IMG/VR virus record: IMGVR_UViG_2939147180_000004
Source: a virus
Lineage: Duplodnaviria; Heunggongvirae; Uroviricota; Caudoviricetes
Direction: 5' to 3' (one strand)
Length of the DNA: 28,621 nucleotides
Part shown: positions 1,659 through 26,112 of the stretch, one piece after another
How the letters are laid out: each line of letters opens with the position of its first letter
Numbering within the stretch: the stretch's first letter is position 1
Made by a program: the position numbers and the translations under genes
Notes under the pieces: generated by a model
Seen by the model: the letters and a program-made list of their open reading frames with translations, nothing else
Database searches by the model: none
What the model was told of the DNA's origin: nothing

Positions 1659-4130
1659 TTAAGAATCAGCCTGACTCGGGATCAGTTTTTGCCAGATAAC
1701 TGAAACGTATTTTGCCTGGTAACGGGCGTCATCAAGTGCATTATGGCGCTCACCTTCGAATGGAATAGCCGTTCTGGCATCGAAGTCTATGGCTTTCCCC
1801 AGCTCAACGATTGTGCGTACATCGCGATCGTTGTAGTAACGCCACGGGCAGGGGATCCCCTGCCGTTCGTATGAACGGCGCAAAATCGTGTTGTCGAAGT
1901 TGGCTCCATTTCCCCAAACCTGAACAAAAAATTCACCGGAGTTTTCGTCGATAAATTCCCGCAATTGTAACAGTGCATCATCTAACGGGATTTCATCGGT
2001 CATAATGGCAGATTGCGCTTCGCGTGATTGCTTAAGCCACCATTTAATGGTGTTCCGATCAATGACTCCGCCAGCAGTTTCCAGATCGATAGTCTTACTA
2101 AATTCCGGTCCCATATCTCCGGTTTGCGGATCGAAAAATATTGCACCTATTGAGATGATCGGGGCATCAGGATTTTTTCCCATGGTTTCAAGGTCGATCA
2201 TTAGATGGTCACACGTCCTGCTGGTGGATGTGATTTCGTGATGACCGTTCACCTTAATTGAGTGATCTGCCGTCTCGCCAGTTTCATTATCGCTATTGTG
2301 ATGCTGATTGCCGCCAGTGTTCTCCTTGTGTGGATGTTCAGCGCCTTCCATTTCCTCCGGATCATCTTCCTGAACTTCAACCTGATATTCTTCATCGAAT
2401 GTTTCTTGATATGTTGCGTCGCCCATCACCGCGCCACAATCAGGGCAGTTGCCGCCGCCGGTCTGACCGCAGGCGGTGCAGACTTTTTCCACTTCCTGTT
2501 GCGCCACTGGTTCAGGCTGTTTCGTTTCTGGCTCGTTTTGTAACGCATTTGTGCTGTTTTGTTCCGCTTTTTGGTAGTTCCGTTCCGATTCATGCTGGTT
2601 CTGGTTCACAGAATCGCGGGTCTGGATCCCCTTAACCCATTTCGGATCATTCGGGTCACTAATCCCTTCAACAAATTCACCACGTGATGCAGCAAGCAAC
2701 TTATCGGCGTCAGGCTGGCTGATATTGGCTGCCTGCATAATTTTGTTTACTTCGTCAGCGGTAACTTTTATCGGCTCTGGTTGTTCTGAATCTTCAGCGG
2801 TATCTACATTTTGCGGTAAGCCCGTGTATGTGCCATTTTTTCGGGCAAAATATTCTTCTTTTGTGATTTCAGTGGCGCCAGCAGCCAGTGCCTTATCCAG
2901 ACCAGAAAGTTTGTTTGCGCGACCGTATTTTTCTCCGTCCTTATCTGCGAAGAGGAAATAGAACGGCCCCTCACGCTCTACAGATGGTTCAGCTTCCGGC
3001 GCGGTTTCATTTTTTGGGATATCAGATACCTCAGTTTCCACTGCATCAGTTTGTGTTTCTGATGACTGGAGAACATCAACAGTGCCCAGGTCTGTTTCTT
3101 CATTCTCAAACACGCCCTTTGTCGTCAGGTATTCGCAGATATATTTGTTCAGTGCTATGGGATCTTTGTGAATGTCGATCGGACGCTCACGGACAAGGCC
3201 AAAAATAGTCTGGCGGTCGTAGCGAAGGGCATCAGGCTGTTTGCGCATTGATGCCGAGATACGCTTCCAGTCTTCGCGGTCGTTGTCGATAACTTCTTTT
3301 TTTGCCCAGCGATGGATGCTGCCGTCAATGTTTCCGGCATCCACATCACCAGGCCAGAGAGCGTAGGCCAGTTCGTCATCCAGTGTTTTCCATGTCTGCT
3401 TGTATTCGCGATGAATGGCAGCAATGACCGGGCTGATTTTTCCTGTTGAATTTTCAGTGTACTGTTGATTGGCTCTGGCGCGGGCGAGATCAACAACAGA
3501 CGTGTATTTTCCGGTTTCCTTGCGTTCACCTTCGCGACGTTTTTTCCAGATGCGCATCTCTGCCTGAATTTCGGGCCATTTAGCACCAGGAATACATTTA
3601 TGCTTAACCCACCCAATGGCGTGCAACTTAAGCTCCGGATACATGGCGTTAACTTCTGGCATTTTCATCAACGCTTCAACGATATGTCCGTCGAATGTTG
3701 CCATGTCTTCCTGCAACAATTCCTGTGCGCTAATAACCATATCAACGGTGATGTTTTCACATGTGTCGAACTTAACCATGACAGCGTTCTGTACTTCAGG
3801 GGCCAGCTTGTCAAAAGTGACGTTCATCGGATCGGATTCAGTCTCAACCGGGACAAAAGAAGCAGACTCCTCATCCCAGCGGTTTTCCTGCATATATTCA
3901 GCATCCCATGAATCGAGGGCAGGGCGGGGTATGCCAGGTTTATCCTCGCAGACAATAAATTTATAAGCGCAGTCCTGAGCAGCCGGATAATGTTCCAGGA
4001 ACTGCCAGTGAAATTTTGCTCGAGCACGGCGTTCGTCGCCAGCTTCAATGGCTGTGGCTACAGCCACAGCGCCTTCTTCCCTTGTTGCCAGTTCGTCAGG
4101 AATAGCGGCGCAAATAAAGACTTTACTCAT
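1659..4130 (-). CDS. Phage exonuclease, 823 aa: RecE-like acidic/zinc-ribbon linker with a C-terminal DnaQ-like DEDDh 3'-5' exonuclease domain
   Basis: C-terminal motifs LMIDLETMG (Exo I), VWGNGANFD (Exo II) and HNALDDARY (Exo III, DEDDh). Central segment KLLAASRGEFVEGISDPNDPKWVKG...CTACGQTGGGNCPDCGAV...EDDPEEMEG matches my recollection of the Rac RecE linker. RBS GAGG upstream of the ATG at 4130. Confidence 0.75.
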   Translation of the reverse strand: MSKVFICAAIPDELATREEGAVAVATAIEAGDERRARAKFHWQFLEHYPAAQDCAYKFIVCEDKPGIPRPALDSWDAEYMQENRWDEESASFVPVETESDPMNVTFDKLAPEVQNAVMVKFDTCENITVDMVISAQELLQEDMATFDGHIVEALMKMPEVNAMYPELKLHAIGWVKHKCIPGAKWPEIQAEMRIWKKRREGERKETGKYTSVVDLARARANQQYTENSTGKISPVIAAIHREYKQTWKTLDDELAYALWPGDVDAGNIDGSIHRWAKKEVIDNDREDWKRISASMRKQPDALRYDRQTIFGLVRERPIDIHKDPIALNKYICEYLTTKGVFENEETDLGTVDVLQSSETQTDAVETEVSDIPKNETAPEAEPSVEREGPFYFLFADKDGEKYGRANKLSGLDKALAAGATEITKEEYFARKNGTYTGLPQNVDTAEDSEQPEPIKVTADEVNKIMQAANISQPDADKLLAASRGEFVEGISDPNDPKWVKGIQTRDSVNQNQHESERNYQKAEQNSTNALQNEPETKQPEPVAQQEVEKVCTACGQTGGGNCPDCGAVMGDATYQETFDEEYQVEVQEDDPEEMEGAEHPHKENTGGNQHHNSDNETGETADHSIKVNGHHEITSTSRTCDHLMIDLETMGKNPDAPIISIGAIFFDPQTGDMGPEFSKTIDLETAGGVIDRNTIKWWLKQSREAQSAIMTDEIPLDDALLQLREFIDENSGEFFVQVWGNGANFDNTILRRSYERQGIPCPWRYYNDRDVRTIVELGKAIDFDARTAIPFEGERHNALDDARYQAKYVSVIWQKLIPSQADS

Positions 4131-4223
4131 TTTGTTTTAACCTCATGACAGATTTAAGGATGAACAAATCCCTGCCATTGCTGGCATATAAGAATGAAAC
4201 CGGATATTTATTACGGAACTGTT

Positions 4224-4415
4224 TTAAAGACCTGCCGGGATTTCGATATTATCCTGGTGAATAACTTTATCGACCGGGTAACAGTTACCGGGAATTTTCT
4301 GTTCGGTTGCTGCAGTCATACACTCCTGCATTGTCCTGTGAACACTGACTGCAATATCAACTGGCTCTCCGGAAACAAGAAAAACTGTCAGAACAAGCGC
4401 AAATGCTGAATTCAT
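4224..4415 (-). CDS. Small secreted/membrane protein (63 aa, N-terminal signal-like MNSAFALVLTVFLVSG)
   Basis: Internal ATG of ORF 4224..4469; AAGGA RBS 8 nt upstream; start codon overlaps the stop of the upstream gene in an ATGA arrangement. Confidence 0.45.
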   Translation of the reverse strand: MNSAFALVLTVFLVSGEPVDIAVSVHRTMQECMTAATEQKIPGNCYPVDKVIHQDNIEIPAGL

Positions 4416-4600
4416 TGTGCACATCCTTTTGGCATCAGACGTAAACGAGCCAGCATTGAAACAATGCATATTTTATTTAATAGCTCCCGTTCTTGTTTTC
4501 TCTTGTTAATGGCCTCTTCAGTAAATACAGGGTTACTGATAGTGACACCAATTTCAAAACAACCTTCAGACGTATTAACGTTTGGTAATAACGTTTTCAT
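4412..4600 (-). CDS. Hypothetical small protein (62 aa)
   Basis: Internal ATG of ORF 4412..4705 with GAGGA RBS 7 nt upstream; translationally coupled (ATGA overlap) to the downstream 63-aa gene. Confidence 0.45.
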   Translation of the reverse strand: MKTLLPNVNTSEGCFEIGVTISNPVFTEEAINKRKQERELLNKICIVSMLARLRLMPKGCAQ

Positions 4601-5102
4601 TATCGCGTCCTCAACAATGAATTTTGTGATGCAGTGCCTGGTGCCTCCAGGTGACGTTAACCAGTTAACAATTAACGCCGGATACAGAGAATCCACCCAT
4701 AACACTGTTTTTGGTTTTAACTGTTCCGCGTGCGCTTAGCCGCATTCACCGCATCACAAAATTCACTTTAAAAACGGCGGCAGAGCAGTCACGGAGTAAA
4801 ACTGATACCGCCAAACGTCACCAGAAAATTGATAACAGAGGGCGTTGCAGCGGGGTTGTCACTTAAGCGTATGGTCAACCTGACAACTCGGTGTCCTCAA
4901 CGGGGAAGGAATAACCCCGCCATACTTACCGCCGCGCCATTTCGCGGGTTGCCACAACCGGAAGCGCACGGTCGAATTAAATTTAACGACACCGTACAGT
5001 GAGACGAACTTCGCCGTGCGCTTTCGTGTTGTGTGCCTGCTTTTAACCACGTCAGGCGAGGTGGTATCCTTCTTATTCCGAATAACCAAGAAGGAAATCT
5101 AT

Positions 5103-5303
5103 ATGACTAAAGAAGAATTTGTCTCTTATATTTTTGATAAAACGGTTGAAATGTATGCCGCTACTTACGGGTCCTGTAATCCTCTGAATAAACCAGAGGG
5201 GAAAGATGATTTCGACAAAATTTACCGCTTCTTGGAGGACCGCTATATCAAAAGGTTAGAGGACGCAGGGATCAAATCCCCAGTGAAGTCACCATTGTCC
5301 TGA
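5103..5303 (+). CDS. Hypothetical small protein (66 aa), opposite in orientation to the early-left operon
   Basis: ATG at 5103 preceded by AAGGA 7 nt upstream (internal start of ORF 5016..5303). Charged, non-repetitive sequence MTKEEFVSYIFDKTVEMYAATYG... The 5' leader can pair TCCTTCTT with AAGAAGGA. Confidence 0.4.
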   Translation: MTKEEFVSYIFDKTVEMYAATYGSCNPLNKPEGKDDFDKIYRFLEDRYIKRLEDAGIKSPVKSPLS

Positions 5304-5637
5304 GAACTTGCAGGACGTCATGATCGTAACTTCCATCCAAACCGCGACGGCAAATTGCTTCTCGTATTACCGGAAGCAGTTCGCTGGAAATCTCGGTGCA
5401 TATTTCACCTGCTAATACGCCTGGCTCAAGTGAGAATATTGGTGAACTTACGGTCTTGGTCTCGACAGTTTCAGAGTCAGTGCCAACATTATAAAGCTCA
5501 ACGAAAGCGGTCTTGATTTTCCGGGCCAGATCTTTTGCTGGCTCGCTTGCAATATCTTTCCCGATTTCTCGCAGCACAGAATGCAATGTATGAGCTGCTG
5601 TTTTCTGTACATCAGACGGTAAATCTTTAAATTCCAT
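5272..5637 (-). CDS. Hypothetical protein (121 aa) at the head of the leftward operon
   Basis: ORF 5272..5649 minus; second ATG (5637) has GAGG 6 nt upstream. Its 3' end overlaps the 3' end of the plus-strand 66-aa gene by 32 bp. No HTH or peptidase S24 motifs seen. Confidence 0.45.
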   Translation of the reverse strand: MEFKDLPSDVQKTAAHTLHSVLREIGKDIASEPAKDLARKIKTAFVELYNVGTDSETVETKTVSSPIFSLEPGVLAGEICTEISSELLPVIREAICRRGLDGSYDHDVLQVLRTMVTSLGI

Positions 5638-5849
5638 CGTCAGCCTCATCAGTCAGTGTTTCTGGCTAACCAGCAACGCGCGCCAGATTCGGTTTTAAAC
5701 GTTTTGCTTTTGGTATATGTCATCGCGGTGAACGTACCGTCCTGGTTGGGGAACACGCCACATACAGGAGGCATCTGGCGGCGAGCTTCTGTATGATCCC
5801 AAGGTTTATGACGAATATCGTAAGACGAAGCGGGCGGGGCGGTTGAACA

Positions 5850-6371
5850 ATGAAAATCACTCCTGAACAGGCTCGTGAGGCTCTGGATGCCTGGATATGT
5901 CGACCAGGAATGACACAGGAGCAGGCGACGATATTAATCACTGAAGCATTCTGGGCTTTGAAAGAGCGCCCGAACATCGATGTTCAGCGTGTCACAGATG
6001 AAGGTGGCGCGGTTGATCAGCGAGCGCTTGGCGTTAATCGAGTGAAGATATTCGAACGCTGGAAGGCTATCGACACTAGGGATAAGCGTGAAAAGTTCAC
6101 GGCGCTAGTGCCTGCAATTATGGAGGCTATCCGGATTAATGATTTCAGGTTGTATCGTGAAATTAGTGACGGAAAAAGCATCACGTACATGATCGCCGGG
6201 TTAAACAAAGAATATGGCGATGTGGTGGAGTCCGGACTGCTTTTTGCTGATCCTGCCGTAGTGGATCGTGAAACTGACGAACTTATAGAAAAAGCAATTG
6301 CTTTCAAACTTGCGTATCGACAGCAATACCAACAAAAAGCTGGATGGAATTATGAGCCTTCTTTTTGCTGA
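5850..6371 (+). CDS. Hypothetical protein (173 aa), first gene of the rightward operon (cII position)
   Basis: ORF with ATG at 5850 directly upstream of, and overlapping by 20 nt, the replication initiator gene. No confident family assignment. Confidence 0.5.
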   Translation: MKITPEQAREALDAWICRPGMTQEQATILITEAFWALKERPNIDVQRVTDEGGAVDQRALGVNRVKIFERWKAIDTRDKREKFTALVPAIMEAIRINDFRLYREISDGKSITYMIAGLNKEYGDVVESGLLFADPAVVDRETDELIEKAIAFKLAYRQQYQQKAGWNYEPSFC

Positions 6372-7317
6372 ACGCCCACTGGTTATAAACACACAGCTTG
6401 CGATGAAGATTGGCTTAAATGAAGCCATTGTGTTGCAGCAGTTGCATTACTGGTTGAGAGATACCAATTCCGGCATGGAATGTGATGGTGTTCGCTGGAT
6501 TTACAACACAACGGAACAATGGCTGGAACAGTTCCCATTCTGGTCAGAGTCAACGTTAAAGCGCGCGTTTGCAAGTCTGAAAACGCTGGGGCTTTTGCGT
6601 TGTGAAAAGCTCAATAAATCAAAGCGCGATATGACCAATTTCTACACGATCAACTATGGGAACGAGCTTTTAGATGGTGGCAAATTGAACGAATCCATCG
6701 GTTCAAAATGCGCCGCTCCATCAGGTCAAAATGACACGATGGAAGAGGTCAAAATGAAACGCTCCATTGGTTCAAAACGACCCAATGTCATCGGGTCAAA
6801 ATGGCCTGATGATCTTACAGAGAATACAACAGAGATTACTACAGAGAATAAAAACACTTTTCGTCCGGAAGCTTCGCAACCGGACCCGCAGACCGCTGAA
6901 CAGGATTTTTTAATCCGGAACCCCGACGCGGTTGTGTTTAGTGCGAAAAAACGCCAGTGGGGTAGCAGGGAGGATTTGGCGTGTGCGCAGTGGATTTGGG
7001 GGCGGATCGTGAACCTTTACGAACAGGCTGCCAGCGACGATGGAGAGATCATGCGACCAAAAGAGCCTAACTGGACAGCCTGGGCCAATGACGTGCGCAC
7101 AATGCGGATGCTGGATGGCAGAAGCCACAGACAAATTTGCGAAATGTTTGGTCGGGTACAGCGAGATCCATTCTGGGTAAAAAACATCATGAGCCCGTCA
7201 AAACTCCGCGAAAAATGGGACGAACTGGTCATCCGCTTGGGACGTTCACCTGTACAGCGTTGTGTGAATCATATTTCTGAACCGGATACAGAAATTCCGC
7301 CTGGTTTCAGGGGATAA
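6352..7317 (+). CDS. Phage replication initiator (lambda O-like N-terminal winged-helix domain, DnaT-like C-terminus ...EPDTEIPPGFRG)
   Basis: N-terminus MSLLFAERPLVINTQLAMKIGLNEAIVLQQLHYWL is typical of replisome-organiser N domains; C-terminal PPGFRG tail resembles the primosomal DnaT C-terminus; iterons lie inside the gene. Start at the internal ATG 6352 is preferred over ORF start 6298. Confidence 0.8.
   Translation: MSLLFAERPLVINTQLAMKIGLNEAIVLQQLHYWLRDTNSGMECDGVRWIYNTTEQWLEQFPFWSESTLKRAFASLKTLGLLRCEKLNKSKRDMTNFYTINYGNELLDGGKLNESIGSKCAAPSGQNDTMEEVKMKRSIGSKRPNVIGSKWPDDLTENTTEITTENKNTFRPEASQPDPQTAEQDFLIRNPDAVVFSAKKRQWGSREDLACAQWIWGRIVNLYEQAASDDGEIMRPKEPNWTAWANDVRTMRMLDGRSHRQICEMFGRVQRDPFWVKNIMSPSKLREKWDELVIRLGRSPVQRCVNHISEPDTEIPPGFRG
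6697..6850. repeat. Replication-origin-like iteron array (5 x GGT(T)CAAAA(T/C)G at ~23-25 bp spacing) followed by an A+T-rich 12-bp tandem repeat ACAGAGA(A/T)TA x3
   Basis: Iterons start at 6700, 6724, 6747, 6769 and 6794; ACAGAGAATA / ACAGAGATTA / ACAGAGAATA at 6817, 6829 and 6841. Location inside the initiator gene mirrors lambda ori inside O. Confidence 0.6.
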
Positions 7318-7644
7318 GTGTTGATTTCAGGTCATGAGGTAATTTTAAGGAGGACTTGTGGCAAAAGTTTTTACACAGGAAGAGCGGGAAAAAATTAAAG
7401 AGCAGGTGGTCGAACTTGTGCGCCAGAGCGGTCGCGAGACATTACGACAGTTGGAAGCTAAAACAGGTGCGACAAGATATCTGATGAGCATTCTTGCCAG
7501 AGAGCTGGTTGCCAGTGGTTATGTATACAACTCCGGCTACGGGTTATTCCCGTCTGAACAGGCACGAAAGGACTGGCAAAATGCCCGCAAAAAACTCTCT
7601 AGGGCGAAGGTGAAGAAACCCGCTGTGGTTGATTGGATTTGCCC

Positions 7645-8550
7645 CTATATTTCCAGACATCTGTTATCACTTAACCCATTACAAGCCCGCTGCCGCAGAT
7701 ATTCCCGTGGCGAGCGATAACCCAGCGCACTATGCGGATGCCATTCGTTATAATGCTCGAACGCCTCTGCAAGGTTCTTTGCTGCCGTTAACCCGTCTGG
7801 TTTGGGCATGATACTGATGTAGTCACGCTTTATCGTTTTCACGAAGCTCTCTGCTATTCCGTTACTCTCCGGACTCCGCACCGCCGTGTTCTTCGGTTCA
7901 AGTCCCAACATCCGGGCGAACTGGCGTGTTTCATTAGCCCGGTAGCATGAACCATTATCCGTCAGCCACTCCACTGGAGACGACGGAAGATCGTTGCCGA
8001 AGCGGCGTTCCACCGCTCCCAGCATGACGTCCTGTACTGTTTCACTGTTGAAGCCGCCGGTAGTGACCGCCCAGTGCAGTGCCTCACGATCACAGCAGTC
8101 CAGCGCGAACGTGACACGCAGTCTCTCTCCGTTATCACAGCAGAACTCGAACCCGTCAGAGCACCATCGCTGATTGCTTTCTTTCACGGCCACTCTGCCT
8201 GTATGTGCCCGTTTCGATGGCGGTACAGCAGGTTTTCGCTCAAGCAACAGCGCATTCTGGCGCATGATCCGGTAAACACGTTTGGCATTGATCGCAGGCA
8301 TACCATCAAGTTCTGCCTGTCTGCGAAGCAGCGCCCATACCCGACGATAACCATACGTGGGCAGCTCTCCGATAACATGGTGTATACGGAGAAGCACATC
8401 CGTATCATCAGTGTGACGACTGCGGCGGCCATCCATCCAGTCATCGGTTCGTCTGAGAATGACGTGCAACTGCGCACGCGACACCCGGAGACAACGGCTG
8501 ACTAAGCTTACTCCCCATCCCCGGGCAATAAGGGCGCGTGCGCTATCCAC
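7645..8550 (-). CDS. insD: IS2 transposase OrfB (InsD, 301 aa, DDE integrase-like)
   Basis: ORF 7645..8550 overlapping insC in the -1 frame; recognised as the IS2 InsD sequence. Confidence 0.9.
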
Positions 8551-8873
8551 TTTTTTGCCCGTCCATATTCAACGGCTTCTTTGAGGAGTTCATTTTCCAT
8601 CGTTTTCTTGCCGAGCAGGCGCTGGAGTTCTTTAATCTGCTTCATGGCGGCAGCAAGTTCAGAGGCAGGAACAACCTGTTCTCCGGCGGCGACAGCAGTA
8701 AGACTTCCTTCCTGGTATTGCTTACGCCAGAGAAATAACTGGCTGGCTGCTACACCATGTTGCCGGGCAACGAGGGAGACCGTCATCCCCGGTTCAAAGC
8801 TCTGCTGAACAATTGCGATCTTTTCCTGTGTGGTACGCCGTCTGCGTTTCTCCGGCCCTAAGACATCAATCAT
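8508..8873 (-). CDS. insC: IS2 transposase OrfA (InsC, 121 aa)
   Basis: [40 protein letters not shown]... (HTH); internal ATG of ORF 8508..8918; ends near the A6G slippery site used for the InsCD frameshift. Confidence 0.9.
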
Positions 8874-9273
8874 CTGTTCTCCAATGACTAGTCTAAAAAC
8901 TAGTATTAAGACTATCACTTATTTAAGTGATATTGGTTGTCTGGAGATTCAGGGGGCCAGTCTATTGATCCGGACCTTATCTGGTCACTACCTGATGGAG
9001 AAATACGTCGCTACGACAGTCGTCTAAACATAATCTGTCGCGAGTGCCGGAAGAGCGAAGTTATGCAGCGCATACTGGCATTTTATCAGTGAAATTTTCG
9101 TTATTTATAGACGTAACTAGATTAAAGAGCATTAGTTCAGATGTGAATTGACATTTTCACGGCACAGGATTGAGCTAGCGTGGTTGTCTGCTTTGCGTCA
9201 AAAGCAGATATTACCAGATTTAGACATCTATTCCCGATAGCCCTGCTCTGATGCCACACTCTGTGCTATTTTC

Positions 9274-9735
9274 ATGACCCCAATAAAAATATTTATGACT
9301 ATTGCTGATTTCAAACGGCCTAAATTGGAGCTCCCAAACGGGGCAAACAAACTACTACTGCACTCTTGCTGTGCTCCATGTTCCGGTGAAGTGATGGAGG
9401 CGCTTCAGGCCTCGGGAATCGACTATACCATCTTTTTCTACAACCCGAACATTCATCCTCAGAAAGAGTATTTAATTCGTAAGGATGAGAATATTCGCTT
9501 TGCTGAACAACACGGCGTGCCATTTATTGATGCTGATTACGACACAGACAACTGGTTTGAACGTGCCAAAGGAATGGAATGGGAACCCGAGAGGGGGATC
9601 CGTTGTACCATGTGTTTTGACATGCGTTTTGAGCGGACAGCGCTGTACGCTGCTGAAAATGGTTTCAGTGTGATCAGCAGTTCACTGGGCATTTCACGCT
9701 GGAAAAATATGCAGCAGGTTACCGTCACTGGATAA
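9274..9735 (+). CDS. DUF208 / QueH-like protein (epoxyqueuosine reductase family homologue), 153 aa, possibly shortened at the C-terminus
   Basis: Motif [12 protein letters not shown] plus ...[13 protein letters not shown]... and ...[14 protein letters not shown]... match my recollection of the QueH (DUF208) Cys-rich signature. No good RBS at either candidate start. Confidence 0.55.
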
Positions 9736-9810
9736 TCTCAGTCAGATTGCCTTACTCCGAACGCCCACCGCGTCCGTCCCGTACATTCCAGCAACGCATC
9801 TGGAGGTAAC

Positions 9811-10860
9811 GTGCGGGTATTACTTCAACCTGTTCTGGTACCGGAACTCGGGCTGGTGGTCGTTAAGCCGGGCCGTGAATCCATGCCGGTATTCCACAAT
9901 ACCCGGGTACTGGTGGAGCCGGAACCGAAAAGCATGCGTAATCTGCCGTCCGGGGTCGTTCCTGCCGTTCGCCAGCCGCTGGTGGAAGACAAAACATTGC
10001 TGCCGTTTTTCAGTAACGCACGGGTAATTCGTGCTGCTGGTGGTGCTGGTGCATTGTCTGACTGGCTGTTGCGCCATATTAAATCCTGCCAGTGGCCACA
10101 CGGCGATTATCATCACAGCGAAACCGTTATTCACCGTTATGGTACCGGCGCAATGGTGTTGTGCTGGCACTGCGACAACCAGCTGCGTGACCAGACATCC
10201 GAATCACTCGAGCAACTTGCTCATCAAAACCTGTCAGCATGGATGATTGACGTCATCGGTCACGCAATAAGCGGTACGCAGGAGCGTGAATTATCTCTGG
10301 CTGAATTATCCTGGTGGGCGGTCCGCAATCAGGTGGCGGACGCGCTACCGGAAGTGGTATTACGTCGCTCGCTGGGATTACCAGCGGAAAAAAACTGCTC
10401 GGTGTACCGCGAAAGCGACATCGTACCGGGAGAGCAGACCGCCACCAGCATATTGAAACAGCGCACAAAAAATCTTGCACCGTTGCCTCACGCCCACCAG
10501 CAACAAAACCCATCACAGGAAAAGACGGTGGTAAGCATCACCGTTGATCCAGAGTCTCCGGAATCTTTCATGAAGCTGCCTAAACGTCACCGTTGGGTTA
10601 AGGAGAAATACACACGCTGGGTTAAGACACAGCCGTGTGCTTGCTGCGGTATGCCAGCCGACGATCCGCATCATCTGATTGGTCACGGGCAGGGCGGAAT
10701 GGGAACCAAAGCACATGATCTCTTTGTGTTGCCTTTGTGCAGAAAGCATCACGACGAGTTGCATACGGATACCGTGGCATTTGAAGAGAAGTATGGCTCC
10801 CAACTGGAGCTGATTTTTCGATTTATCGATCGCGCGCTGGCAATTGGTGTGCTGGCCTAA
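9811..10860 (+). CDS. DUF968-family prophage protein (YdfU-like, 349 aa) with C-terminal HNH-like Cys/His motif
   Basis: GTG start at 9811 with GGAGGT RBS 4 nt upstream; C-terminus ...[43 protein letters not shown]. Sits directly upstream of Q, where lambdoid phages carry nin-region genes. Confidence 0.7.
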
Positions 10861-10877
10861 TTTTGTGGAGTAAGTTG

Positions 10878-11255
10878 ATGCGTGATATTCAGATGGTTCT
10901 TGAGCGTTGGGGGGCATGGGCGGCTAATAATCATGAAGATGTGACCTGGTCGTCCATTGCCGCCGGTTTTAAGGGATTAATTCCTTCAAAAGTAAGATCT
11001 CGTCCGCAATGCTGTGACGATGACGCGATGATCATTTGTGAATGTATGGCTCGCCTGAAAAAAAACAACAGCGATTTACATGATTTATTGGTGGACTATT
11101 ATGTCGGCGGCATGACTTTTATGGCGCTTGCACGTAAGCATGGGCGATCTGATTGTTGGGTTGGCAGGATGCTCCAGAAAGCTGAGGGCGTAGTGGAGGG
11201 CATGCTGATGGTGTTGGATCTCCGATTGGAGATGGATGCTGATTGTTCGAAATAA
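10878..11255 (+). CDS. Q: Late-gene antiterminator Q (QuuD/phage-82-type), 125 aa
   Basis: [33 protein letters not shown]...[32 protein letters not shown] matches my recollection of E. coli DLP12 QuuD. ATG 10878 with GGAG RBS 7 nt upstream. Confidence 0.85.
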
Positions 11256-11354
11256 TTAAAGGAAAAGTTGCTGTCTGATTTTCATTAGTCTAACATTTTA
11301 AATGTTGGAATCGCAACGTAGTTATTATCATATAACAGCTTGTTTCCTGATTTA
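11256..11354 (+). promoter_or_regulatory. Probable late promoter (pR'-like) / Q-utilisation region
   Basis: About 100 bp between the Q stop and a strong terminator. Candidate hexamers TTGCTG (11268..11273), 17-bp spacer, TAACAT (11291..11296); an alternative TTGGAA is at 11305. Exact hexamers uncertain. Confidence 0.3.
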
Positions 11355-11383
11355 GCCAGCCTCCCCAAAGGCTGGTTTTTTTC
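11355..11383 (+). terminator. Rho-independent terminator (tR'-like) downstream of Q
   Basis: Stem CCAGCCT / AGGCTGG (11356..11362 and 11369..11375) with CCCCAA loop, followed by T8. Confidence 0.6.
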
Positions 11384-11410
11384 TAATAAGTATCATTTCG
11401 GGTGGGGATT

Positions 11411-11935
11411 TTATTGTTTAACCCATAATAGTTCATTGACATTGAATCCCAACTTTTGAGCGGTACGCACATAGTCTGCTTTTACATTATCTGGAATAGT
11501 TTGGGTCCTTGCCAGAATCCATAGGTATTCTCTGTTCGGACCACTGACAAGAGCATACTTATACTCATCATCCAGTTTGATTACATTATAGCCACCATAG
11601 AAGGGGCCAAAAAACGAAACTTTCAACGCTGCAGTTTTAGTATCTCCAGTAAAGTATGCTTTACCTTCGCTCTCGCTCCATTTGTTTTTCGTTGGATCGT
11701 ATCCACGGTTAAGTACGCGAATCCCTCCGTCGTTCCGTTTTTCATAAGTAGCGCTGACCTGTTCCAGACCACGTTCGAACCAGTTCTCGAGGCGAGCTAT
11801 TTCATACCATTTTCCGAGGTAGCGGTTGGCGTCAAAATTTGTAATCGGCTGCACACCTTTAGGTGGTGTCGGGGCCTTACATGCTATAAGAGTGAAAGAG
11901 AGTGCAATGCCAGTCAACACAGGCCATAACTTCAT
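11411..11935 (-). CDS. Outer-membrane lipocalin lipoprotein (Blc-like), 174 aa
   Basis: Lipoprotein signal with lipobox LIAC; ...FDANRYLGKWYEIARLENWFERGLEQVSATY...KVSFFGPFYGGYNVI...YLWILART... closely parallels E. coli Blc. AGGA RBS 8 nt upstream. Confidence 0.8.
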   Translation of the reverse strand: MKLWPVLTGIALSFTLIACKAPTPPKGVQPITNFDANRYLGKWYEIARLENWFERGLEQVSATYEKRNDGGIRVLNRGYDPTKNKWSESEGKAYFTGDTKTAALKVSFFGPFYGGYNVIKLDDEYKYALVSGPNREYLWILARTQTIPDNVKADYVRTAQKLGFNVNELLWVKQ

Positions 11936-12127
11936 AATAAATCCTGTACTTTTGATAGTTGAGAGTAAGTATGAAAGATAGATGAGTACGACCGATCACT
12001 TAAAGAACTTTCCTACTATATTAGGAATAGTCAATAACAGAAAAATTGTCAGTGATGAAGCCAGAAAGGCAATTTAGTCCGTGCACTACAAAGTTTATGT
12101 GTTAATGAATTAGTCAAGGGGGAGGAA

Positions 12128-13087
12128 ATGATAAAAAAACCTGTGATTGGGATCAGCGGTTGTTTGGGCGGTTCTGCTGTTCGTTTTGATGGTGGTCACA
12201 AAAGAGATGACTTTTTAATGGACAAATTAGTGGAATGGGTAACATTCAGACCAGTATGTCCGGAAATGGCTATAGGGCTGCCAGTTCCGCGTCCTGCTCT
12301 ACGACTTGTGCGCTCGAAGCAAGGAAATATACGGATGTGTTTCAGCCACGACCAGAATGAGGATGTGACAGAGAGAATGACAGAGTTTAGTCGTTCTTAT
12401 ATGGACAAATTAAAGGATGTATCGGGGTTTGTGGTTTGTGCTAAATCTCCCAGCTGTGGCATGGAGCGCGTGCGTGTCTATGATGAAAATGGTAATCGAG
12501 GTCGTAAAGATGGAGTGGGACTATTTACGAGCACTTTGATGGAAAAGTTTTCCTGGCTACCGGTTGAAGAGGATGGGCGATTACATGATCCAGTGCTTCG
12601 TGAGAATTTTATTGAAAGAGTTTTTGCTTTGCATGAGCTCAATCACCTTTACAAGGAGAAATTATCAAGAAGAGAGTTATTAGCTTTTCATAGTCGTTAT
12701 AAGCTTCAGTTGTTGGCGCATAGCCAGGCAGGCTATAAAGATATGGGACCATTTGTGGCTGCAATACACGAGTGGGCGGACCTTGAATCATACTTTGAGG
12801 TGTATCGTGATAATCTGATGGCGATTCTCAGAAAACCAGCATCACGTAAAAATCACACGAATGTGCTGATGCATATACAGGGGTATTTTAGTAATTACTT
12901 AAGTACACGCCAGCGTAAAGAGTTGAGCGAGGTTATACTTAACTATCGCTTTGGCACATTGCCTCTTCTTGCGCCGTTGACTCTGCTGAAGCATTATCTG
13001 GGTGAGTATCCTAATGATTACTTGCTTACACAGAATTACTTCGATCCCTATCCGGAAGAACTGGCTCTAAGACTGATGGTGAATTAA
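12128..13087 (+). CDS. DUF523 (TudS-like Fe-S desulfidase fold) - DUF1722 fusion protein, 319 aa
   Basis: N-terminus VIGISGCLGGSAVRFDGGHKRD...CPEMAIGLPVPRP...KSPSCG fits DUF523; the C-terminal half resembles YbgA-type DUF1722. Strong RBS GGGGGAGG upstream. Confidence 0.65.
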   Translation: MIKKPVIGISGCLGGSAVRFDGGHKRDDFLMDKLVEWVTFRPVCPEMAIGLPVPRPALRLVRSKQGNIRMCFSHDQNEDVTERMTEFSRSYMDKLKDVSGFVVCAKSPSCGMERVRVYDENGNRGRKDGVGLFTSTLMEKFSWLPVEEDGRLHDPVLRENFIERVFALHELNHLYKEKLSRRELLAFHSRYKLQLLAHSQAGYKDMGPFVAAIHEWADLESYFEVYRDNLMAILRKPASRKNHTNVLMHIQGYFSNYLSTRQRKELSEVILNYRFGTLPLLAPLTLLKHYLGEYPNDYLLTQNYFDPYPEELALRLMVN

Positions 13088-13493
13088 CTGTATGCGATAT
13101 CATCTGAAAGTGATGAGTTCCTGTATGCAGGATATTTACAATCGTAAAAACTACGCTATGATGCTCATAGTGTCAGTTTTTATAAAAATCCTGTTCACGC
13201 TAAAGAAAACATTGAGATGCAATTTAATGTTGGTAAACATACCAGCCCCAAAAGATTTTATTCAATCTGTTTTTATATGAAGATATTTCAAGTGAATATA
13301 AAGAGCATATAATATTATTATTGCACGCAGCTATTATAATATAACAGATTAGTTTAATGATTTGTTTTTTGTGAGTTAAACACATGGTTTTATAGTTGTG
13401 ATGCAATGAGATTTTCCTTATTGTTGAACTGGCGAATATTGATTTTCCACCTATACTTACCTGGTGTAACCCCAATGATATCAGGTGGATAAT

Positions 13494-14207
13494 ATGCCAT
13501 ACATATGTTCTATCATTTTGGTGTTGAACTCGTTTGGTGTCCGAATTGGTAAAGAAGATATTTTGTTTAAAAAAGGAAATGCTGTCCTCATTGAATACAA
13601 TTTAAAAGATCTTTTTTCGTCAAATACAGATCATCTAATGATCGTAGATATTGAGGAGAAAACAGTTAATGATTTCTTTAAAAACTACACACTCTCACCT
13701 TTTTCTGTAAGAAGGTTTTATCCGTCATACTTGATAGTAGAATGTGAAGATTTTTCATTGTTAAGGAACTTGGTTGCATGCTTGAATTGTGATAGCAAAA
13801 CCGTGGATGTAGTTAGAAATCAAATATCACTTGCATGTCTTGCTGTCTTATCTTCAGAGAAAATAGTGCAAAGTTTTTTGTTCGGAAGTCTTAATAGCTT
13901 AGGTTGTAAAGTTAAGGCTATTATTCACTCGGATATCTCAGCGTCATGGAGACTTTGTGATATATCTTCAAGATTATATATGAGCGAGAGTTTGTTAAAA
14001 AGAAAATTAAAAGACGAAGGATTATCGTTTAGTAAATTAATTCTTGAAGAACGAATGATGATGGCGCAAAGATTATTGATCTACAGTAACCATACTGTCG
14101 GCAAGGTGGCGGGAATATGCGGGTATGACAATGCATCATATTTTGTAAGTGTTTTTAGAGGATATTTTGGTGTGCCTCCGCACCAATATTTATCAAGATT
14201 TTCTTAG
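13494..14207 (+). CDS. AraC/XylS-family transcriptional regulator (AppY/GadX-like), 237 aa
   Basis: C-terminal AraC-type HTH (...VGKVAGICGYDNASYFVSVFRGYFGVPPHQY); N-terminus resembles AppY; AGGTGG RBS 5 nt upstream of ATG 13494; sits in an A+T-rich segment. Confidence 0.8.
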   Translation: MPYICSIILVLNSFGVRIGKEDILFKKGNAVLIEYNLKDLFSSNTDHLMIVDIEEKTVNDFFKNYTLSPFSVRRFYPSYLIVECEDFSLLRNLVACLNCDSKTVDVVRNQISLACLAVLSSEKIVQSFLFGSLNSLGCKVKAIIHSDISASWRLCDISSRLYMSESLLKRKLKDEGLSFSKLILEERMMMAQRLLIYSNHTVGKVAGICGYDNASYFVSVFRGYFGVPPHQYLSRFS

Positions 14208-16518: not shown

Positions 16519-16881
16519 ATTAATATTAAATCGGATTATTTTTAGCGCTGAATGTGAAATTTAAATAAAAAGGACTCTTCCATGAGTCAAAATCCTTGAA
16601 ATCTTAAGGGTAAGATAAAAGGTCATTAGACAGAATGACACGTTTTATTAATAAATAAAGCTATTGTTTCATTCGTGTGTTTTTCTTTACAAAAGTAATC
16701 CTTGCTATGGTTGGTTAATCATGCGTTAATGGTGTTCTGGTTTGTTACAAAATTATCTGAAGCAGTCATTGTTATAATTTTATTATTTGTACCTCTTGAG
16801 ATTTCCTTGTTGGTTTTTCTCTCTGATATTTTTTTTCGGACCATTCTGCCCAAGGGCTAACTTCTTCAAAAGGTAATAATG

Positions 16882-17094
16882 ATGTCTAACACAATGACTG
16901 GTTTAGTGAAATGGTTTAACCCTGAAAAAGGTTTTGGTTTCATCACGCCGAAAGATGGTAGCAAAGATGTGTTTGTCCATTTCTCAGCTATTCAGAGCAA
17001 CGATTTCAAAACGTTAACTGAGAATCAGGAAGTCGAATTTGGTATTGAGAACGGACCTAAAGGCCCCGCGGCTGTTCATGTTGTGGCACTTTGA
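16882..17094 (+). CDS. cspI: Cold-shock protein, CspA family (CspI/CspB-like), 70 aa
   Basis: [70 protein letters not shown]; preceded by a long A+T-rich leader typical of cold-shock genes. Confidence 0.85.
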
Positions 17095-17293
17095 GGTAGA
17101 AAATATTACAAACCATATTCACTTTAGATGCCCGTGTTGCCATGGTTCTCAGTATAGAACATCATCTTTTGATGTTTCTGACAGGAATCCTTTCGGGGCA
17201 AAATGTATCTTTTGTAAATCAATGATGATTACATTTGATAATATTTCACAATACTTAAATGTTAGCCGTCTATCGTTAGATTTAAGAAAGTGA
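17078..17293 (+). CDS. Small Cys-rich zinc-ribbon protein (YnfN-like), start uncertain
   Basis: ...[35 protein letters not shown]...; the ORF-track start at 17039 is TTG; the first ATG (17078) overlaps the csp stop by 17 nt and has a weak RBS. Confidence 0.4.
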
Positions 17294-19004: not shown

Positions 19005-19549
19005 ATGTCAAATGTGAGCGGGATCGGTGATGCTTATTACTGGAGTGTTTTTAAAATCGCCGAGGCCTTTGGGCTTCACCGGGACACAGTAAAAAAACGG
19101 CTCCTCGCGGCCAACACTCCTGTGGCTGCGACTGTCAGGGGGAACCCCGTTACCGGTTTGTCGCCTTAACCGATTACGACCGTTTTCCGGAGAATATCGA
19201 CAGCGAGGGTGATGGTTTCTCCCAGGCCTCAAAACGTACCACCACATTTATGTCCGCCGGGATGACTCTGGTGGAGAGCTCGCCGGGACGTGACATCTGC
19301 GACAGCAAATGGCGACGTAAGTCGCCTCATGAAGCGCCACCGACGACTGGTATTCTTTCCCTTTACAATCGTGGTGACCGCCGCCGCTGGTACTGGCCAT
19401 GTCCGCACTGCGGTGAATATTTTCAGCCAGCCATGGATGCCATGACCGGCTACCGTAATGAACCGGATCCCTTTAAAGCCAGTGATGCGCTGTATGCCGG
19501 TATGGAACGGGCAGACGCTGACGTTCGTGCAGGACCGACCATCAGATAA
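19005..19549 (+). pseudogene. Terminase gene remnants (small-subunit-like N-terminus, then large-subunit-like fragment in a different frame)
   Basis: ATG 19005 with GGAG RBS gives a 54-codon ORF (MSNVSGIGDAYYWSVFKIAEAFGLHRDTVKKRLL...) ending 19169. An overlapping second frame contains ...RRRWYWPCPHCGEYFQP..., like the lambda gpA segment ...CPHCGEE... Neither is full length. Confidence 0.5.
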
Positions 19550-21929
19550 GGTGTGGACCTATAACCGCAGTAATGTGGTGATGCCGGATGATGGCGCGCC
19601 GTTCCGCTACAGCTTCAGCGCCCTGAAGGACCGCCATAATGCCGTTGAGGTGAACTGGATTGACCCGAACAACGGCTGGGAGACGGCGACAGAGCTTGTT
19701 GAAGATACGCAGGCCATTGCCCGTTACGGTCGTAATGTCACGAAGATGGATGCCTTTGGCTGTACCAGCCGGGGGCAGGCACACCGCGCCGGGCTGTGGC
19801 TGATTAAAACGGAACTGCTGGAGACGCAGACCGTGGATTTCAGCGTGGGTGCTGAAGGGCTTCGCCATGTACCGGGCGATGTCATTGAAATCTGCGATGA
19901 TGACTATGCCGGTATCAGCACCGGCGGGCGCGTGCTGGCGGTAAACAGCCAGACCCGGACGCTGACGCTCGACCGTGAAATCACGCTGCCATCTTCCGGC
20001 ACCACGCTGATAAGCCTGGTTGACGGGCAGGGGAGTCCGGTCAGCGTGGAGGTTCAGTCCGTCACCGACGGCGTGAAGGTAAAAGTGAGCCGTGTTCCTG
20101 ACGGTGTTGCTGAATACAGCGTATGGGGGCTGAAGCTGCCGACGCTGCGCCAGCGACTGTTCCGCTGCGTGAGTATCCGTGAGAACGACGACGGCACGTA
20201 TGCCATCACCGCCGTGCAGCATGTGCCGGAAAAAGAGGCCATCGTGGATAACGGGGCGCACTTTGACGGCGACCAGAGCGGCACGGTGAATGGTGTCACG
20301 CCGCCAGCGGTGCAGCACCTGACTGCCGAAGTCACCGCAGACAGCGGGGAGTATCAGGTACTGGCCCGCTGGGACACGCCGAAGGTGGTGAAGGGGGTGA
20401 GCTTTATGCTTCGCCTGACCGTGGCAGCGGACGACGGCAGTGAGCGGCTGGTCAGCACGGCCCGGACGACAGAAACCACATACCGCTTCACGCAACTGGC
20501 GCTGGGACGGTACACGCTGACAGTCCGGGCGGTAAATGCGTGGGGACAGCAGGGCGATCCGGCGTCGGTATCGTTCCGGATTGCCGCACCGGTAGCACCG
20601 TCGCGGATTGAGCTGACGCCGGGCTATTTTCAGATAACTGCCACGCCGCATCTTGCGGTTTATGATCCGACGGTACAGTTTGAGTTCTGGTTCTCGGAAA
20701 CGCGGATTACCGATATCAGGCAGGTTGAAACCACAGCCCGCTACCTTGGTGCGGGGCTGTACTGGATAGCCGCCAGTATCAATATCAAACCGGGCCATGA
20801 TTATTACTTTTATATCCGCAGTGTGAACACCGTTGGCAAATCGGCATTCGTGGAGGCTGTTGGTCAGCCGAGTGATGACGCATCCGGCTATCTGGATTTT
20901 TTCAAAGGCGAGATAGGGAAAACCCATCTGGCTCAGGAGCTGTGGACGCAGATTGATAACGGTCAGCTTGCGCCTGACCTGGCTGAAATCAGGACGTCCA
21001 TTACGGATGTCAGCAATGAAATCACGCAGACCGTCAATAAGAAACTGGAAGACCAGAGTGCAGCGATCCAGCAGATACAGAAGGTTCAGGTTGATACAAA
21101 TAATAACCTGAACAGCATGTGGGCTGTGAAGCTGCAGCAGATGCAGGACGGACGCCTTTATATCGCGGGTATTGGTGCCGGTATTGAGAACACCCCTGAC
21201 GGCATGCAGAGTCAGGTGCTGCTGGCAGCAGACAGGATTGCGATGATTAATCCTGCGAATGGCAACACAAAGCCGATGTTTGTTGGGCAGGGCGATCAGA
21301 TATTCATGAACGAAGTGTTCCTGAAACGCCTGACGGCTCCCACCATTACCAGCGGCGGTAATCCTCCGGTATTTTCCCTGACACCGGACGGGCGGCTGAC
21401 GGCGAAAAATGCCGATATCAGCGGTAACGTGAATGCGAACTCCGGGACGCTCAACAACGTCACGATTAACGAGAACTGTCGGGTTCTGGGAAAACTGTCC
21501 GCCAACCAGATTGAAGGCGATCTCGTTAAAACAGTGGGCAAAGCTTTCCCCCGGGACTCCCGTGCACCGGAACGGTGGCCATCAGGGACCATCACCGTCA
21601 GGGTTTATGACGATCAGCCGTTTGACCGGCAGATTGTTATTCCGGCGGTGGCATTCAGCGGCGCTAAACATGAGCGGGAGAATAACGATATTTATTCGTC
21701 ATGCCGCCTGATAGTACGGAAAAACGGTGCTGAAATTTATAACCGTACCGCGCTGGATAATACGCTGATTTACAGTGGTGTTATTGATATGCCTGCCGGT
21801 CACGGTCACATGACACTGGAGTTTTCGGTGTCAGCATGGCTGGTAAATAACTGGTATCCCACAGCAAGTATCAGCGATTTGCTGGTTGTGGTGATGAAGA
21901 AAGCCACTGCAGGCATCACGATTAGCTGA
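19458..21929 (+). pseudogene. J: Host-specificity/central tail fibre protein J, 5'-truncated (about the C-terminal 790 codons)
   Basis: Near-colinear with my recollection of lambda gpJ from ...[40 protein letters not shown]... to the C-terminus. The 5' boundary is approximate and abuts the terminase remnants; no upstream tail genes. Confidence 0.85.
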
Positions 21930-21947
21930 ATTTTATAACCCAGATAC

Positions 21948-21973
21948 GGGCGCCAGAAATGGCGCCTTTTTTA
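21948..21973 (+). terminator. Rho-independent terminator after J
   Basis: GGCGCC / GGCGCC stem (21949..21954, 21961..21966), loop AGAAAT, then T6. Confidence 0.6.
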
Positions 21974-21996
21974 TTGCAGAAAAGCGAGAGGTAATT

Positions 21997-22596
21997 ATGC
22001 GTAAAGTTTGTGCAGCCATTTTGTCCGCAGCCATCTGTCTGGCCGTATCCGGTGCGCCTGCATGGGCGTCTGAGCAGCAGGCCACACTGAGCGCAGGGTA
22101 TCTTCATGCCTCGACGAACGTTCCCGGTAGTGATGATCTGAACGGGATTAACGTGAAATACCGTTATGAGTTTACGGACACGCTGGGGCTGATTACGTCA
22201 TTCAGTTATGCCAACGCTGAAGATGAGCAAAAAACGCATTACAGCGATACCCGCTGGCATGAGGATTCCGTGCGTAACCGCTGGTTCAGCGTGATGGCGG
22301 GGCCGTCTGTGCGCGTGAATGAATGGTTCAGCGCGTATGCGATGGCGGGTGTGGCTTACAGCCGTGTGTCGACTTTCTCCGGGGATTATCTCCGCGTAAC
22401 TGACAACAAGGGGAAAACGCACGATGTGCTGACCGGAAGTGATGACGGTCGCCACAGCAACACGTCTCTGGCGTGGGGGGCTGGCGTGCAGTTTAACCCG
22501 ACCGAATCCGTGGCCATTGATATTGCTTATGAAGGTTCCGGCAGTGGTGACTGGCGCACTGACGGTTTCATCGTGGGTGTCGGTTATAAATTCTGA
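21997..22596 (+). CDS. lom: Lom-family outer membrane protein (Ail/Lom/PagC), 199 aa
   Basis: Signal peptide MRKVCAAILSAAICLAVSGAPAWA; C-terminus ...YEGSGSGDWRTDGFIVGVGYKF matches my recollection of lambda Lom; GAGAGG RBS. Confidence 0.85.
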   Translation: MRKVCAAILSAAICLAVSGAPAWASEQQATLSAGYLHASTNVPGSDDLNGINVKYRYEFTDTLGLITSFSYANAEDEQKTHYSDTRWHEDSVRNRWFSVMAGPSVRVNEWFSAYAMAGVAYSRVSTFSGDYLRVTDNKGKTHDVLTGSDDGRHSNTSLAWGAGVQFNPTESVAIDIAYEGSGSGDWRTDGFIVGVGYKF

Positions 22597-22623
22597 TTAG
22601 CCAGGTAACACAGTGTTATGACA

Positions 22624-22650
22624 GCCCGCCGGTTCAGGCGGGTTTTTTTG
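22624..22650 (+). terminator. Rho-independent terminator after lom
   Basis: CCCGCC / GCGGG stem with GGTTCAG loop followed by T7. Confidence 0.6.
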
Positions 22651-22660
22651 TGGGGGGAAT

Positions 22661-25498: not shown

Positions 25499-25613
25499 AT
25501 CTCCAGACAACCAATATCACTTAAATAAGTGATAGTCTTAATACTAGTTTTTAGACTAGTCATTGGAGAACAGATGATTGATGTCTTAGGGCCGGAGAAA
25601 CGCAGACGGCGTA
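25483..25613 (+). mobile_element. Solo 131-bp fragment of the IS2 left end (IRL through the insC start region)
   Basis: 131 bp identical to positions 1-131 of the full IS2 copy at 25656..25786; the match ends abruptly (GTA|AGTAAGA versus GTA|CCACACA). Confidence 0.85.
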
Positions 25614-25746
25614 AGTAAGATGCTGTCGCTAAAAAATTTCTTTAGCGGAGCTGAGTAGACTGGCCCCCTGAATCTCCAGACAACCAATATCACTTAAATA
25701 AGTGATAGTCTTAATACTAGTTTTTAGACTAGTCATTGGAGAACAG

Positions 25747-26112
25747 ATGATTGATGTCTTAGGGCCGGAGAAACGCAGACGGCGTACCACACAGGAAAAG
25801 ATCGCAATTGTTCAGCAGAGCTTTGAACCGGGGATGACGGTCTCCCTCGTTGCCCGGCAACATGGTGTAGCAGCCAGCCAGTTATTTCTCTGGCGTAAGC
25901 AATACCAGGAAGGAAGTCTTACTGCTGTCGCCGCCGGAGAACAGGTTGTTCCTGCCTCTGAACTTGCTGCCGCCATGAAGCAGATTAAAGAACTCCAGCG
26001 CCTGCTCGGCAAGAAAACGATGGAAAATGAACTCCTCAAAGAAGCCGTTGAATATGGACGGGCAAAAAAGTGGATAGCGCACGCGCCCTTATTGCCCGGG
26101 GATGGGGAGTAA
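25747..26112 (+). CDS. insC: IS2 transposase OrfA (InsC, 121 aa)
   Basis: Identical protein to copy 1; the A6G slippery heptamer AAAAAAG (26064..26070) lies in the insC/insD overlap. Confidence 0.9.

Follow-up and report, generated by a model that had tools for sequence, protein, structure and literature searches.

The DNA analysed here (the window; 28,621 nucleotides, IMG/VR record IMGVR_UViG_2939147180_000004, with all positions counted over its full length) contains the early region of a lambdoid prophage, as judged from the ORF listing and family scans. On the minus strand, ydfD (4224..4415) encodes the lysis protein YdfD (DUF1482; Pfam PF07358, 91 bits), is annotated as such by PGAP in an identical genome and is the distal gene of the dicBF operon. 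The adjoining dicB (4412..4600, minus strand) encodes a 62-residue cell-division inhibitor (PF05358, 131 bits) that shares 60 of 61 residues (98%) with K-12 DicB. Neither gene had been recognised in the earlier, sequence-only reading of this region. The 53-nt form of the small regulatory RNA DicF is found at 4775..4826 on the same strand, the dicB start being 174 nt downstream of it, and positions 4827..5044 (minus strand) specify the part of the polycistronic dicBF transcript that serves as untranslated DicF precursor. Next come two convergent protein genes: one of 66 aa on the plus strand (5103..5303; WP_000159335, phrog_34441), antisense to the leftward operon and headed by a leader with two conserved hairpins (5046..5095, plus strand), and one of 121 aa on the minus strand (5272..5637; WP_023281935, phrog_33007), at the place of K-12 ydfB/ydfC. 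The co-ordinates originally given for both ORFs, and for the 3′ overlap at 5272..5303, are correct. The next minus-strand gene, ydfA (DUF1391; 5649..5774), is truncated at its 5′ end and matches PF07151 (74.5 bits) over profile positions 12–47 only. With ydfA, dicF, dicB and ydfD on one strand and in an order colinear with K-12 (PF07151, RF00039, PF05358, PF07358), the arrangement is that of a Qin-type dicBF operon. Leftward past ydfD the minus strand continues with an exonuclease gene (823 aa), xis and int. The leftward early operon is the known dicBF operon and runs through ydfA, the 121-aa gene, DicF, dicB, ydfD, the exonuclease gene, xis and int.

On the plus strand, a DicC/Cro-type pseudogene (5762..5866) retains 34 C-terminal codons, whose translation equals residues 42–75 of an intact 75-aa DicC-like protein; PGAP labels it ‘transcriptional regulator, missing N-terminus’ in an identical genome. 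Its end is overlapped by the gene of a 173-aa YdaT/CII-like early regulator (5850..6371; PF06254, 26.1 bits against a cut-off of 21; phrog_163, 2.3e-40), which thus directly follows the Cro-type gene. The phrog_163 family is labelled ‘CII-like transcriptional activator’; a phmmer search of PDB sequences with the 173-aa protein gave no match. An O-like replication initiation gene (6352..7317, plus strand; phrog_391, 1.7e-92) comes next, followed on the plus strand by a DUF977/Ren-like gene that is interrupted by IS2 (7645–8918, minus strand). The rightward operon consists of dicC (cro), ydaT (cII-like), O and the genes beyond. Elsewhere in the window an IS3-family element, a truncated J gene and tail genes, and cargo genes add to the signs of decay.

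The stretch from 4706 to 5100 had been described as about 400 bp of GC-rich non-coding DNA. It indeed holds no convincing ORF. Its rise in GC content is modest (0.50–0.52, versus 0.40–0.44 in the flanks), and the description missed a small RNA gene: the stretch is the DicF gene together with its structured untranslated precursor. DicF scores 72.5 bits with the Rfam model (gathering score 48), covers model positions 1–52 of 52, is essentially identical to K-12 dicF and ends in the terminator hairpin GGCGG...CCGCC followed by UUUUU. Compared with K-12 Qin, window positions 4200–5044 are 96.7% identical over 850 bp, a span that begins 220 bp upstream of dicF and takes in dicF, dicB and ydfD, and the precursor segment corresponds to the unannotated K-12 ydfC–dicF spacer. 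Gene order and orientation are those of the K-12 ydfABC-dicF-dicB-ydfDE and dicA/dicC arrangement; ydfD and ydfA are homologous, and a structured untranslated region lies upstream of dicF in both. The two differ in that the window lacks dicA, dicBp, the operators and most of dicC, has the 121-aa and convergent 66-aa genes instead of ydfB/ydfC, and retains intact exonuclease, xis and int genes, whereas ydfE and intQ are pseudogenes in K-12.

The minus-strand RNA from 4760 to 5050 folds at −102.7 kcal/mol (z = −2.4). This fold and inverted repeats I2 and I5 reveal an extended, imperfect duplex in the DicF precursor, its arms at about 4953–4976 and 5010–5033. Differences from K-12 in the 5′ arm are two C-to-U changes that retain G.U pairs in the minus-strand RNA and one change in a bulge. 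According to Ragunathan et al. (2023; PMC10448788), the 190-nt form of DicF arises through RNase III and the 53-nt form through RNase E. Counting 137 nt upstream from the 5′ end of the 53-nt form leads to position ∼ 4963, the expected 5′ end of the 190-nt species, a point within the 3′ arm of the duplex. Placed by homology and this arithmetic, the duplex is probably the RNase III site. By homology with K-12, RNase III (at the long stem) and RNase E would cut the precursor into the 190-nt and 53-nt forms.

A second feature of the region that calls for explanation is the lack of an immunity repressor. In family scans, the interval from the gene pair to the 173-aa gene yielded neither an intact HTH repressor nor an S24 domain nor a gene of Cro size, in agreement with the original observation that no repressor or Cro is recognisable there; the only other HTH protein in the window is an AraC-type regulator. 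No operator-like site is left anywhere in the window. When positions 4200–6400 were used as a megablast query against 5426 complete Escherichia coli genomes, nine near-identical records (H1–H9) were colinear with the window, whereas relatives at 99.8–99.9% identity (H10–H24 among them) matched in two pieces that span 3041 rather than 2201 bases. The extra DNA of these relatives is annotated with an HTH protein gene and with a regulator of Cro/CI or DicC type. In a base-by-base comparison with one intact relative (L001), colinearity from the left ends at 5765 and colinearity from the right begins at 5763, which defines a 3-bp TAC microhomology at the junction (5763..5765). No repressor or Cro is visible because an 840-bp deletion took them, as is directly evident from this alignment.

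The intact relative has, in the missing 840 bp, ydfA codons 1–9; an intergenic region of 192 bp that bears a TTGACG...TAAATT promoter and repeats resembling operators; a repressor of 135 aa matching NCBIfam NF007257, ‘transcriptional repressor DicA’, at 237 bits (cut-off 101) and 57% identical to K-12 DicA; a 77-bp divergent control region between the repressor and DicC/Cro genes; and the first 41 codons of the 75-aa DicC/Cro protein (NF007282, 165 bits, cut-off 130). Promoter and operator motifs are confined to this segment. The remaining ydfA has 41 codons versus 50 in the intact gene, and its first three to four codons derive from beyond the junction. The lambdoid immunity layout, a divergent HTH repressor and Cro with an operator-bearing spacer, is complete in L001 and in mEp460_ev081 but absent from the window. 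A single illegitimate-recombination deletion at the 3-bp microhomology removed the entire genetic switch: dicA, the dicA–dicC operator/promoter region, dicC codons 1–41, the dicBp/OL-like promoter region and the ydfA start. Conversely, the idea that the 840 bp is an insertion in the relatives, with a target duplication or IS ends, was rejected, as the segment encodes a normal dicA/dicC switch and the window retains truncated halves of two genes. The point where the two operons diverge had been noted as the place where lambdoid phages have cI/cro and their operators, and the ydfA and DicC/Cro remnants at this point were overlooked; it is a deletion scar rather than an operator region. That the immunity module might have been deleted had been offered as one alternative, and this holds: near-identical prophages and mEp460_ev081 contain the extra 840 bp exactly at 5763–5765.

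mEp460_ev081 (LR597641) is a functional temperate lambdoid phage that is 99.5% identical to the window over 4600–5800. It shares the int-xis-exonuclease-ydfD-dicB-dicF-66aa/121aa-ydfA arrangement and the ydaT–O genes, and differs in retaining the 840 bp with the repressor (‘C2’), a Cro-like regulator and the promoters; the window, with its IS insertions and lost structural genes, is a deleted and decayed derivative. mEp460_evo81 carries dicB, dicF and dicAC (Ragunathan et al., 2023; PMC10448788). Taken together, the gene content and the junction mean that the window is very probably a decayed Qin-type lambdoid cryptic prophage of E. coli whose switch was lost by the 840-bp deletion. The same junction occurs in 13 of the 5426 genomes, and four of these 13 are only 98% identical around it; the allele may go back to one old event that was followed by divergence or recombination.

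The deletion bears directly on the expression of dicB and dicF, both of which are toxic when derepressed, derepression leading to filamentation. In K-12 Qin, the sole start found for the dicBF transcript is dicBp, which lies upstream of ydfA and is repressed 22-fold by DicA (Ragunathan et al., 2023; PMC10448788). Since dicBp is the only dicBF promoter and DicA its repressor, the deletion removes the repressor and the promoter that it controls at once. dicBp, its operators and dicA all lie inside the 840 bp missing from the window, which thus does not provide for transcription from dicBp under DicA repression. With DicA, dicBp and a PR-like promoter going together, DicF, DicB and the replication genes would all be left without native promoters, and ydaT would be the first intact gene of the rightward operon, now promoterless. 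A scan for sigma-70 promoters and terminators over 4100–6400 found no more sites than in shuffled sequences; none of these sites lay on the minus strand, the stretch upstream of ydfA included, and none could serve as a promoter for the 66-aa gene. We infer that dicF and dicB are silent after the deletion, and the joint loss of the promoter would explain why loss of the repressor was tolerated. Read-through from minus-strand transcription further upstream, for example from the IS2 element, is possible, as is a cryptic promoter at the junction. If the genes are indeed silent, the host loses prophage immunity without the cost of dicB/dicF derepression. The allele is rare, and its carriers are natural ‘promoterless dicBF’ variants for the study of DicF and DicB.

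The missing switch and the non-coding DNA are thus both accounted for by known biology. The dicF/dicB locus is well known, and the region is a textbook case of cryptic-prophage decay around it. The convergent gene pair stands apart from this decay: it is a separate, uncharacterised cassette of the lambdoid immunity region that has nothing to do with the loss of the switch. The pair module measures 613 bp (5045–5657), stands in place of K-12 ydfB/ydfC and occurs at ≥ 99.5% identity in 391 of the 5426 genomes (∼ 7%), derivatives of E. coli B included. Diversity within E. coli is too low for selection tests (≥ 99.5% identity), and homologues from other genera and metagenomes were used. Homologues of the 66-aa protein from Cedecea, Shigella and metagenomes have 65–66 residues and 54–89% identity, and keep the start, length and stop. 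Across 20 pairwise comparisons dN/dS was 0.08–0.32, with an excess of third-position changes, which marks the 66-aa ORF, on the evidence of its substitution pattern, as a real gene. An exhaustive HMMER profile search found only 13 members of the family among 1.84 billion representative proteins; the three weakest of these matches were dismissed as repetitive. There is also a distant 73-aa relative.

The 66-aa gene converges on and overlaps its partner gene in all seven prophage backgrounds in which it was found. In six of these a repressor gene immediately precedes the partner, and the repressors consist of an HTH only, are of the S24 type or match no family. The Cedecea pair is placed between cro and cII, with an uncalled ORF as partner. 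Conservation of the partner lies in its C-terminal ∼ 45 residues, which always occur alongside the 66-aa gene, while the N-terminal helical hairpin of the 121-aa protein (residues 1–50) is common to other PHROG families. AlphaFold models the 66-aa protein as a two-helix hairpin (pLDDT 81.5), and Foldseek found no PDB match for this model at E < 1. The 121-aa protein is modelled poorly (pLDDT 55.9), with BFVD matches limited to the N-terminal hairpin of uncharacterised phage proteins of ∼ 50 aa. Profile searches of PDB sequences with both proteins returned nothing below E = 0.1. Pfam, NCBIfam and PADLOC scans gave no match for either protein, so that neither matches a known defence-system or toxin–antitoxin profile, and PHROGs assigned both to unannotated families only. 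The original description of the pair as uncharacterised genes therefore still applies.

The sequence-only reading had also proposed that pairing within the leader of the 66-aa gene would occlude its ribosome-binding site. The inverted repeat TCCTTCTT (5067–5074) / AAGAAGGA (5088–5095) is perfect, has a 13-nt spacing and covers the Shine–Dalgarno (SD) sequence; a second conserved leader hairpin, ACCAC/GTGGT, lies at 5046–5065. The folding energy of the former is unremarkable on its own (z = −1.7). In a comparison of 11 distinct leaders, which represent about four independent lineages, 92.9% of cells were paired, versus at most 59.6% when the partner was slid. Two pairs in the same set of leaders were changed on both sides (C-G to U-A and U-A to A-U), a result reached by 13 of 500 shuffles, and each leader variant has its own stem extension. 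This conservation with compensatory changes gives tentative support to the proposal and favours a plus-strand RNA hairpin that would sequester the SD sequence. Action of the hairpin on the minus-strand transcript is less favoured, since five U.G pairs of the stem would be A.C mismatches on that strand. The 5′ arm is overlapped by an invariant extended −10-like motif, TGnTAYCCT (5062–5070). The IS10 transposase gene is subject to fold-back inhibition of translation. In the leader of the 66-aa gene the SD sequence lies in an inverted repeat, with a −10-like motif inside the 5′ arm. On the model of IS10, an internal promoter there would yield translatable transcripts free of the 5′ arm, whereas read-through transcripts would be folded shut.

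Three other interpretations of the region were considered. According to one, the immunity module was not deleted but replaced, and the 121-aa/66-aa pair or the 173-aa protein forms a novel repressor/Cro pair over the divergent operons. The genes do lie near the divergence point without annotated function, and the pair is conserved beside repressor genes in other prophages. However, in near-identical prophages and in mEp460_ev081 the pair adjoins, and so coexists with, intact dicA/dicC, and the truncated halves of dicC and ydfA are still in the window. Neither pair protein has an HTH: the 66-aa protein is a plain two-helix hairpin, the 121-aa protein matches only unannotated PHROGs and no solved structure, and family scans, PDB profile searches and the Foldseek search with the 66-aa model revealed no repressor or Cro fold. 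The 173-aa protein, for its part, is YdaT/CII-like. We regard replacement, which had been raised alongside deletion, as next to impossible. According to another interpretation, 4706–5100 is a decayed protein gene that is intact in relatives. Small ORFs of 51, 57 and 76 aa do occur there, and one of them is called ‘hypothetical protein’ in the mEp460_ev081 record; yet no fetched genome has a PGAP gene call in the stretch, and the 51-aa ORF is antisense to DicF. Relative to the 96.7% identical ydfC-dicF-dicB spacer of K-12, in which dicF is the sole annotation, the nucleotide differences keep the pairing of the fold, and the fold is the stem expected for RNase III processing. That the K-12 spacer is likewise without an annotated protein gene argues that this is no decayed gene but the DicF locus, and renders the interpretation extremely improbable.

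Chance is the third possibility, with the 66-aa ORF a fortuitous antisense reading frame and its leader hairpin a fortuitous inverted repeat. The ORF is short and has no family match beyond phrog_34441, the stability of the hairpin is unexceptional, and the 5′ arm might owe its conservation to the overlapping TGnTAYCCT motif as a promoter −10 rather than to RNA structure. Against this, the start, length and stop are held in homologues down to 54% identity, dN/dS is low throughout with its third-position excess, and the same partner domain recurs in all seven prophage backgrounds. For the hairpin, the drop in pairing on sliding, the two double-sided changes and the variant-specific stem extensions all speak for a conserved RNA structure, and a chance origin of ORF and hairpin appears highly unlikely.

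The spot beside the repressor and antisense to the early operon is the classic place of exclusion or addiction functions that are expressed in the lysogen. We speculate that the pair, in the shape of the 66-aa two-helix protein and the C-terminal domain of the 121-aa protein, forms a two-gene cassette with a narrow distribution among enterobacterial lambdoid phages and in an exclusion or addiction position. In this tentative proposal, which we think somewhat doubtful as a whole, the small gene might be controlled by the SD-sequestering fold-back, with only internal-promoter transcripts translated, and the convergent overlap might tie its expression inversely to leftward (lytic) transcription. 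The overlap recalls phage lambda, in which oop RNA overlaps the 3′ end of cII: the convergent 3′ ends of the 66-aa and 121-aa genes overlap by 32 nt. The likeness is one of arrangement, and the 66-aa transcript differs from oop in being protein-coding and not purely an antisense RNA. The cassette is conserved, unstudied and located at the usual position of exclusion genes, and, as some 7% of the complete E. coli genomes carry it, it would be easily testable.

The same deletion junction as in the window is carried by one of the comparison loci (L005, NZ_AP027520) and by three matches from the E. coli genome search (H36-H38), in surroundings that are only 98% identical to those of the window and with different YdaT and O alleles. 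Because an identical junction lies on this diverged background, the scar is either old or has been relocated by recombination.

The 66-aa gene and its partner gene form a mobile unit. In a Cedecea prophage (L006, 3568-3897, minus strand), the 66-aa gene lies between cro and cII, not after the repressor. It is paired there with an ORF that annotation left uncalled and that corresponds to the 121-aa protein in its C-terminal domain only, so it is the pair that makes up the mobile unit. In another E. coli genome (P0015), an IS2 end interrupts a copy of the 66-aa gene after codon 38, and the fusion tail beyond that codon matches the window ORF 7629-7811. The leader of the 66-aa gene contains an extended -10-like motif, TGnTAYCCT (5062-5070, plus strand), which is invariant across all close homologues of the leader and overlaps the 5' arm of the hairpin predicted to occlude the Shine-Dalgarno sequence. 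This overlap suggests, by analogy, an IS10-style fold-back arrangement.

The window has its own IS2 element (within 7358-9092, minus strand; transposase ORFs 7645-8918), which breaks up a DUF977/Ren-like gene, leaving one piece at 7358-7720 and a remnant close to 8964-9092. Since the element faces the dicBF operon, which is inferred to be promoterless, read-through into that operon could conceivably come from it. Within the operon, the Rfam family STnc100 (RF02076) gave a full-length but sub-threshold match (4568-4777, minus strand; 34.5 bits, E = 3e-5, where the gathering score is 47) that takes in the spacer between dicF and dicB together with the beginning of dicB. The Rfam cspA thermoregulator family matched at 16724-17121 (plus strand) with 109 bits versus a gathering score of 78; the matched stretch corresponds to the 5' UTR and beginning of a cspI-like cold-shock gene of the prophage, as found in Qin.

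A cargo region (9274-14207) separates the replication genes from the lysis genes; it holds a QueH remnant, DUF968, a Q antiterminator (10863-11255), a lipocalin (11411-11935, minus strand), a 2-thiouracil desulfurase/DUF1722 protein (12128-13087) and an AraC-type regulator (13485-14207). Genome NZ_CP147125, identical in other respects, carries an IS1 insertion at 12387, and its identity with the window stops there. The structural genes are mostly gone (19458-26975): the J tail-tip gene is present in N-truncated form (19458-21929), and a tail-fibre gene (22661-25498) is followed by an IS3-family transposase ORF (26070-26975).
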